NCBI RefSeq assembly: GCF_046105845.1
Contig: NZ_CP151004.1
Length of the DNA: 64,000 nucleotides
Reading direction: 5' to 3' (one strand)
Source of the DNA: Escherichia coli
GTDB taxonomy: Bacteria > Pseudomonadota > Gammaproteobacteria > Enterobacterales > Enterobacteriaceae
The stretch's first letter is position 1, and every line of letters starts with the position of its first letter. Below the pieces are notes generated by a model. It saw only the letters and a program-made list of their open reading frames with translations. It did no database searches and had not been told where the DNA came from. Both the position numbers and the translations under genes were made by a program. Of the stretch, positions 41,837 through 41,884 are shown piece by piece.

Positions 41837-41884
41837 CGCCTCTCCTTAATTCGCCCCTCGCCTTACGGAAAGGGGCGTTGGTTG

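Follow-up and report, generated by a model that had tools for sequence, protein, structure and literature searches.

REPs are imperfect palindromes of about 35 nt with a conserved GTAG/CTAC head, and they belong to dispersed families whose near-identical members number in the tens to hundreds per genome. The paradigm for REPs as intercistronic stabilizers of mRNA is reportedly the malE-malF junction, which Newbury and colleagues are said to have described in 1987. The aceBAK operon of Escherichia coli K-12 also has REPs between two of its genes, and the ratio of AceA to AceK is reportedly about 1:0.003, according to work from 1993 by Chung and colleagues. The same work reportedly ascribed the drop from aceA to aceK to poor translation combined with termination inside aceK and found that the intergenic REPs contribute little to it. 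This ratio is a textbook example of differential expression within an operon, and the dosage of AceK sets the extent to which isocitrate dehydrogenase is phosphorylated.

Intergenic regions of E. coli are known to vary in at least two ways. Polymorphism of BIMEs between isolates was reportedly described by Bachellier and colleagues in 1997, and Oren and colleagues are said to have described horizontal regulatory switching, or switched intergenic regions, in 2014. Most of the switched regions that have been described replace promoters upstream of operons. Under the "gene-pair" definition of Thorpe et al. 2018 (Piggy, PMC5890482), a switched region has intergenic alleles without significant similarity between the same pair of orthologous genes. 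As for what REPs do within transcripts, a review (PMC3333891) describes them as both stabilizers of mRNA and attenuators.

Results

The aceA-aceK junction of the window

The window (by which we mean the whole stretch of 64,000 nt of DNA that was analyzed) is from E. coli: an 801-bp query spanning the junction has a match, at 95–99.9% identity, in 5425 of 5426 complete E. coli genomes. In the window, aceB, aceA, and aceK all lie on the minus strand. aceA (isocitrate lyase, 434 aa) is at 41885..43189 (-), with its TAA stop codon at 41887..41885, and aceK (isocitrate dehydrogenase kinase/phosphatase, 578 aa) is at 40100..41836 (-), with its ATG at 41836..41834. These assignments come from the list of open reading frames and from the RefSeq annotation of a genome that is 99.9% identical, which has the same end for aceA. 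The initial annotation had named the same two genes and had put a spacer of 48 bp between them, and both the names and the boundaries of the spacer (41837..41884 (-)) agree with RefSeq. On the coding strand, the spacer reads 5'-CAACCAACGCCCCUUUCCGUAAGGCGAGGGGCGAAUUAAGGAGAGGCG-3'. From 5' to 3', it begins with 7 nt that lead to a stable stem-loop, after which come 3 unpaired nt and an exposed and near-consensus Shine-Dalgarno (SD) sequence.

At the other end of aceK, the arpA/espL4 open reading frame (37945..40131 (+)) converges on the gene and overlaps it by 32 nt (aceK ends at 40100). AceK has 574 aa, not 578 aa, where arpA is absent: in ST131, ATCC 25922, BEN2908, CE10, and a metagenome contig, L103, that is discussed below. 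Because the 574-aa form is found in strains and lineages that lack arpA, the C terminus of AceK co-varies with this phylotyping marker.

Comparison with the K-12 spacer

In E. coli MG1655, the aceA-aceK spacer is 182 bp and contains three REP-type palindromes, which we take to be canonical REPs of types Y, Z2, and Y. This bears out the expectation in the initial annotation of a longer spacer with REPs in K-12. The two spacers differ in sequence as well as in length (48 versus 182 bp).

It was also proposed that the window has a shortened variant of the K-12 spacer, and here the comparison points the other way. Alignment of the two spacers with MAFFT gave scattered matches only and no remnant of a REP, and their ribosome-binding sites differ. 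When we aligned the window's spacer to the 48-nt REP-free core of the K-12 spacer, 709 of 1,000 shuffled sequences scored at least as high as the real one; for a natural allele with a single REP, 677 of 1,000 did. Since neither alignment is better than those of shuffles, we rejected a simple deletion of REPs from a K-12-like spacer. The 48-nt spacer also lacks GTAG/CTAC, which, together with the non-significant alignment to the one-REP allele, indicates that it is not a REP or BIME element. The window's spacer is a replaced ("switched") spacer and not a trimmed one.

The K-12 BIME and the window's allele are alike in that they occupy the same locus between the same flanking genes, and in that both place a stable, GC-rich stem-loop between a highly expressed gene (aceA) and a poorly expressed one (aceK). 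Unlike the BIME, the window's element, which is unrelated to it in sequence, is a single unique hairpin that does not come from a dispersed repeat family. It is also followed by a different and stronger ribosome-binding site.

Two classes of spacer in E. coli

The 48-nt spacer is not confined to this strain: 717 of the 5426 complete E. coli genomes carry it (13% of a collection that is clinically biased), and 706 of those 717 copies are 100% identical. A REP/BIME spacer is present in another 4708 genomes, if we count those in which the right flank and the start of aceK match at 80% coverage or above. The two classes together account for 5425 of the 5426 genomes.

In all 717 carriers, the 48-nt spacer was found at exactly one place, which was always between aceA and aceK (blastn with a word size of 11 and E <= 10). 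In the window, the 26-mer of the stem-loop occurs once, even if three mismatches are allowed. The K-12 spacer, by comparison, matches at least 40 places per genome. We therefore rejected the idea that the 48-nt hairpin is a dispersed repeat; because it is found at a single site and is nearly always identical, it is a common allele.

Carriers of the 48-nt allele include EAEC 042, PCN033, an O139:H1 pig strain, APEC O18, and BEN2908 (the last two are ST95). REP alleles are found in ST131, ATCC 25922, O157:H7, CE10, and K-12. In representative strains, the spacers of the REP class are 85, 124, 182, 183, 215, 228, or 280 bp long, with one to five REPs. At either end, these spacers are constant (GCAAC..GTTGCTGAC at the left, GGCAATTCTCTGCTCCTGATGAGGGCGCTAA at the right), and the BIME is followed by a weak, partly buried ribosome-binding site.

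In E. coli IAI39 (NC_011750.1, 4604300-4604900), a gene for an IS3-like transposase of the IS1397 family lies between aceA and aceK. IS1397 is an insertion sequence that targets BIMEs, so the REP-class spacer is also a target for insertion sequences. Both this insertion and the expansion or contraction of the number of REPs are known behaviors of BIMEs. Unlike such BIME polymorphism, the window's allele is not the product of excising a BIME: what the K-12 spacer has outside its REPs is unrelated to the allele.

Across the two classes, the flanks are 97–99% identical and the similarity of the spacers is no better than that of shuffled sequences. By these comparisons, the aceA-aceK spacer is a switched intergenic region as Thorpe et al. 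2018 (PMC5890482) define it. As in other switched regions, two non-homologous intergenic sequences are found at one locus, between conserved orthologous genes, within one species. In contrast to the promoter switches upstream of operons, this one affects the interior of an operon, where both an intercistronic RNA element and a ribosome-binding site have been replaced. We did not find a description of this dimorphism in the full-text literature that we searched (which covers few of the older journals), and Ton-Hoang et al. 2012 mentions neither aceA nor aceK.

Movement and origin of the 48-nt allele

Genomes that carry the 48-nt spacer differ from the window by 1.5–3.1% across 3 kb of flanking sequence, and carriers with an identical spacer can differ from each other by up to 3% there. 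In the last 400 nt of aceA, the short-allele strains have up to 18 differences from the window, and they are as divergent from each other as they are from REP-class strains. Conversely, BEN2908 (which has the 48-nt spacer) and ATCC 25922 (which has a 215-bp REP spacer) encode identical AceK proteins (WP_001137237.1) and have 8 and 1 differing sites in their 400-nt flanks. We compared the ends of the genes in 15 strains from both classes. The last 18 nt of aceA are invariant (15/15), and in the first 47 nt of aceK the only changes are two in the K-12 lineage and one or two scattered ones in several other strains. Because an identical spacer is found with diverse flanks, the ends of the genes are nearly invariant, and AceK is shared across the classes, we conclude that homologous recombination, acting through the conserved ends of aceA and aceK, has moved the 48-nt spacer among E. 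coli backgrounds.

A scan of metagenomes for exact matches to the 26-mer identified eight contigs, all from Escherichia, including two that are about 93–94% identical to E. coli. (Contigs L096, L097, and L102 contain indels, and ungapped comparisons past the indels are meaningless.) Contig L103 is about 93% identical to the window across aceBAK, and the closest of the 5425 matching E. coli genomes is 93.1% identical to it. The AceK protein from L103 is encoded on 24 contigs, including one from NCBI assembly GCA_013520565.1, and all of these have the 48-nt spacer. In this non-coli lineage of Escherichia, the spacer matches the window's at 47 of 48 positions, and there is one difference from -40 to +95 around the spacer, as compared to a divergence of 6.9% overall. 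Two explanations fit the near-identity: a short block may have been transferred between the lineages recently, or the sequence may be under strong constraint. Because diversity within E. coli is very low, we favor recent spread, which could also be the reason, instead of constraint, that the carriers are nearly identical to each other.

REP-type spacers are also found outside of E. coli. E. albertii (locus L003) has a 542-bp spacer that consists of tandem REP-type palindromes and has the same outer flanks as the REP class of E. coli. Salmonella, Citrobacter, and Kluyvera have REP-type spacers that end in ribosome-binding sites of the type GAUG(A/G)GG. Given these relatives, the REP class looks ancestral and the 48-nt allele looks derived. 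We searched for a donor among the spacers of 80 species of Enterobacterales (a set without E. fergusonii, E. marmotae, and E. ruysiae) and found no significant match. The best match among them, from Buttiauxella sp. B2, scored 24, at the 95th percentile of the scores from shuffled queries.

The hairpin and the aceK ribosome-binding site

The initial annotation had reported an inverted repeat upstream of the SD of aceK, and we found it at 41877..41852, with the stem ending 3 nt before the SD. The corresponding GC-rich stem-loop (41852..41877 (-), or positions 8–33 of the spacer) has eight outer pairs (CGCCCCUU/GAGGGGCG, of which the last is U-G), bulges of 1 nt, and an inner CC/GG pair that closes a GUAA loop. 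When we folded the RNA of the junction, as had been suggested, we obtained a single stable hairpin with a minimum free energy of -19 kcal/mol (z = -2.9); none of 200 dinucleotide shuffles folded as well. The structure as described here makes up 68% of the ensemble. In one natural variant, a C>U change preserves a pair of the stem as G-U; in another, two changes hit the inner CC/GG pair and the neighboring bulge, and the outer stem of 8 bp is untouched. A search of 40000-45500 against Rfam (E <= 1) returned only a chance match to a snoRNA elsewhere in that region and no known RNA family at the spacer.

The SD of aceK, which had been noted as well, is UAAGGAG at 41842..41848 (-), 5 nt before the ATG. 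It is predicted to be mostly unpaired, and its duplex with the 3' end of 16S rRNA is predicted to have an energy of -9.2 kcal/mol, versus -6.1 kcal/mol for K-12 (the ribosome-binding sites are UUAAGGAGAGGCG-AUG in the window and GAUGAGGGCGCUAA-AUG in K-12). The probability that the SD is unpaired was 0.58–0.69 in the 48-nt allele, across four sequence contexts, versus 0.04–0.39 across four REP alleles. Opening the RNA from -15 to +13 would cost 10–13 kcal/mol in the 48-nt allele and 8–17 kcal/mol in the REP alleles. If the opened region is extended to -18, which cuts into the stem, then the cost is 13–22 kcal/mol, versus 12–16 kcal/mol in K-12. Since the opening energies from -15 to +13 are alike in the two classes, the predicted advantage of the 48-nt allele in translation rests mainly on the strength and accessibility of its SD. 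Overall, these models predict that translation of aceK initiates at least as well from the 48-nt allele as from the K-12 allele, and probably better. We also considered a translational operator, that is, a hairpin that sequesters the SD, and rejected it because the stem ends 3 nt before the SD and the SD is mostly unpaired.

The stem itself (8+2 bp, -19 kcal/mol) is GC-rich and stable enough for a Rho-independent terminator. On the transcribed strand, however, there is no U-tract 3' of the stem (AAUUAAGG is found there instead), and our terminator scan lists no site on the minus strand at the hairpin, so we rejected this role. As an aside, if the hairpin is read on the plus strand (41859..41877 (+)), then it is followed by TTGGTTGTTA and is scored as terminator-like. 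In that orientation it would act on transcripts that are antisense to aceBAK, and no nearby gene on the plus strand has an obvious need for it.

The initial annotation had linked the hairpin to the strong down-regulation of aceK. We did not find support for this link, because the SD remains unpaired, binds the anti-SD more strongly, and is not preceded by a stem with a U-tract.

On the operon's coding strand, the best-scoring terminator-like site lies within aceK, about 340–370 nt inside the gene, where a stem (41498..41477) is followed by a T-run. This is the intrinsic terminator of AceK-int, a small RNA that is annotated in K-12: the corresponding region of the window (41467..41553 (-)) is identical to K-12 b4830 at 94 of 94 nt. 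Adams et al. 2021 (PMC7815308) attributed the 3' end of AceK-int to intrinsic termination, with a score of 5.9, and a TRS study (PMC10687069) found a conserved 3' end at this position in orthologs of aceK. We infer that any strong down-regulation of aceK in the 48-nt allele must come mainly from this conserved internal terminator.

Structured spacers across the Enterobacterales

We also folded the aceA-aceK spacers (of 30–200 nt) from 70 species of Enterobacterales. Every one of the 70 folds with an energy of -10 kcal/mol or lower, and z is <= -2 for 57 spacers. Their sequences are unrelated: some are REP-like, some are of the CCCTCTCCC/GGGAGAGGG type, and others have single hairpins with or without a T-run. 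In most of the other Enterobacterales, the structure comes within a median of 5 nt of the ATG and buries the SD; the window's allele, with 15 free nt before the ATG, is unusual in this respect. Because repeats that are rich in hairpins accumulate in intergenic DNA anyway, the prevalence of structure across species is weak evidence of selection.

Spacers from Enterobacter, Klebsiella, Raoultella, Lelliottia, Cedecea, Buttiauxella, and other genera contain a CCCTCTCCC..GGGAGAGGG..GGGTGAGGGG element, which we take to resemble the box C repeat. The G-rich 3' tail of the element is the SD of aceK, and it is predicted to pair with a 5' C-tract. In these genera, then, a repeat element appears both to supply and to mask the ribosome-binding site of aceK, as far as folding predictions go. 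In Pectobacterium, Serratia, and Yersinia, the spacer has a single hairpin, such as GAGCCTGCTTATGCAGGCTC, and then a T-rich run, an arrangement that resembles a terminator or an attenuator between aceA and aceK and that has no counterpart in the window's allele. Finally, in Kluyvera genomosp. 3, the stop codon of aceA (as parsed) is 281 nt before aceK, and sequence that resembles the coding region of aceA continues past it. This could be a frameshift, a premature stop, or a sequencing error.

Discussion

What might the hairpin do?

The explanation that we consider best, although we would give it slightly less than an even chance of being right, is that the hairpin acts on the aceBAK RNA as an intercistronic barrier to decay, much as REP stabilizers do, instead of masking the ribosome-binding site, and that the internal terminator limits aceK. 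Decay of the downstream RNA, or endonucleolytic cleavage in the AU-rich single-stranded stretch 3' of the hairpin (GA|AUU), would come first. 3'-to-5' exonucleases would then be stopped at the hairpin, and the aceBA segment of the transcript would persist for longer than the aceK segment, with the ribosome-binding site of aceK left unmasked.

A stable stem-loop is indeed found directly downstream of the more abundant cistron, as at malE-malF, and the role that we propose is the same. Unlike the malE-malF element, the 48-nt hairpin is not a REP, and its role as a stabilizer is proposed by analogy. The consensus for cleavage by RNase E is RN|WUU, and the GA|AUU directly after the stem fits it, but a chance match would be expected in about 1 of 6 such stretches. 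Also, if REPs contribute as little to the drop from aceA to aceK in K-12 as is reported, then the 48-nt hairpin may matter little too.

Alternatively, the replacement of the spacer may have been neutral, which is possible but on the doubtful side. The 48-nt sequence would have arrived from another lineage of Escherichia, by recombination or by an illegitimate event, and would have spread by hitch-hiking or recombination. In this scenario, which we hold to be doubtful to the same degree, the spacer would have no selected function, in its hairpin or in its lack of REPs, beyond the provision of a workable ribosome-binding site. The range of spacers (from one to five REPs within E. coli, 542 bp in E. 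albertii, and an IS1397 in IAI39) suggests that this site tolerates almost anything. That the spacer varies so little among the 717 carriers is in keeping with a recent origin, and the adjacent ends of the coding sequences are nearly invariant in both classes as well. On the other hand, neutrality does not readily account for a spacer that is 47/48 identical in a lineage whose flanks have diverged by 6.9%, for the fact that the few natural variants spare the outer stem, or for the stable structure that is kept at the spacer in 70 of 70 related species.

A reading in line with the initial annotation, that the hairpin lowers the translation of aceK (for example, by occupying a ribosome standby site upstream of the SD) and so helps to explain why AceK is about 300-fold less abundant than AceA, seems unlikely to us. 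It is true that only 3 nt separate the stem from the SD, that opening the RNA from -18 to +13 would cost 13–22 kcal/mol as compared to 12–16 kcal/mol in K-12, and that a damped aceK site is the norm for the family, given that the structure in most other Enterobacterales comes within a median of 5 nt of the ATG. But in the 48-nt allele, both the SD and the AUG lie outside the stem, the probability that the SD is unpaired (0.58–0.69) is above that of every REP allele that we tested, the duplex with the anti-SD is 3 kcal/mol stronger than in K-12, and the cost of opening from -15 to +13 is about equal to that in K-12.

A more adventurous scenario, which we view as improbable, is that the 48-nt spacer is a regulatory cassette that recently crossed a species boundary within Escherichia and spread because its exposed ribosome-binding site raises the dosage of AceK. 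Just as improbably, as part of the same scenario, it would have spread by recombination into several lineages, including the ST95 ExPEC/APEC and strains similar to EAEC 042. If this were so, then better translation through the internal terminator would lead to more full-length aceK mRNA too, and the isocitrate branch point would be reset for bacteria that use acetate or fatty acids to grow in the host.

Two further roles are very unlikely. A partial terminator (attenuator) between aceA and aceK would suit the GC-rich stem and its location, the hairpin with a T-run in the same spacer of Yersinia, Serratia, and Pectobacterium, and the statement, cited in the review (PMC3333891), that BIMEs can attenuate transcription, but the coding-strand stem is followed by AAUUAAGG and not a U-tract, the terminator scan reports nothing there, and the real intrinsic terminator is about 340 nt downstream, within aceK. 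Translational coupling, in which the end of the aceA coding sequence (AUCGC..UUCU) pairs with the SD and AUG of aceK (AGGA..GCGAU) around the hairpin, and in which aceK would, with equally slim prospects, be translated only once a ribosome finishing aceA melts the helix, is compatible with the 4+5-bp helix that encloses the hairpin in the minimum free energy structures of the 84- and 121-nt contexts and with the presence of the GCGAU complement in the short allele only, but this is a minor conformer (only 4 bp are left in the centroid, and across the ensemble the SD stays about 60% unpaired), the z scores of the longer contexts are weak (-1.2 to -1.9), and coupling to a gene translated as highly as aceA would give more AceK instead of less.

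Implications for aceK expression

About one-eighth of sequenced E. coli genomes, including those of major extraintestinal pathogens, have a junction between aceA and aceK that is unrelated to the K-12 junction, with a much better SD and no REPs. Because of this, and because the mechanistic work on aceK expression has, to our knowledge, all been done with the K-12 allele, the rules from K-12 may not transfer to carriers of the 48-nt spacer. The pair of alleles is a natural experiment that sets REPs against a plain hairpin inside an operon. The effect of the difference on AceK is likely to be quantitative only. Intergenic polymorphism of this kind is already well known, and the 48-nt allele is an ordinary instance of it that may alter the amount of AceK.
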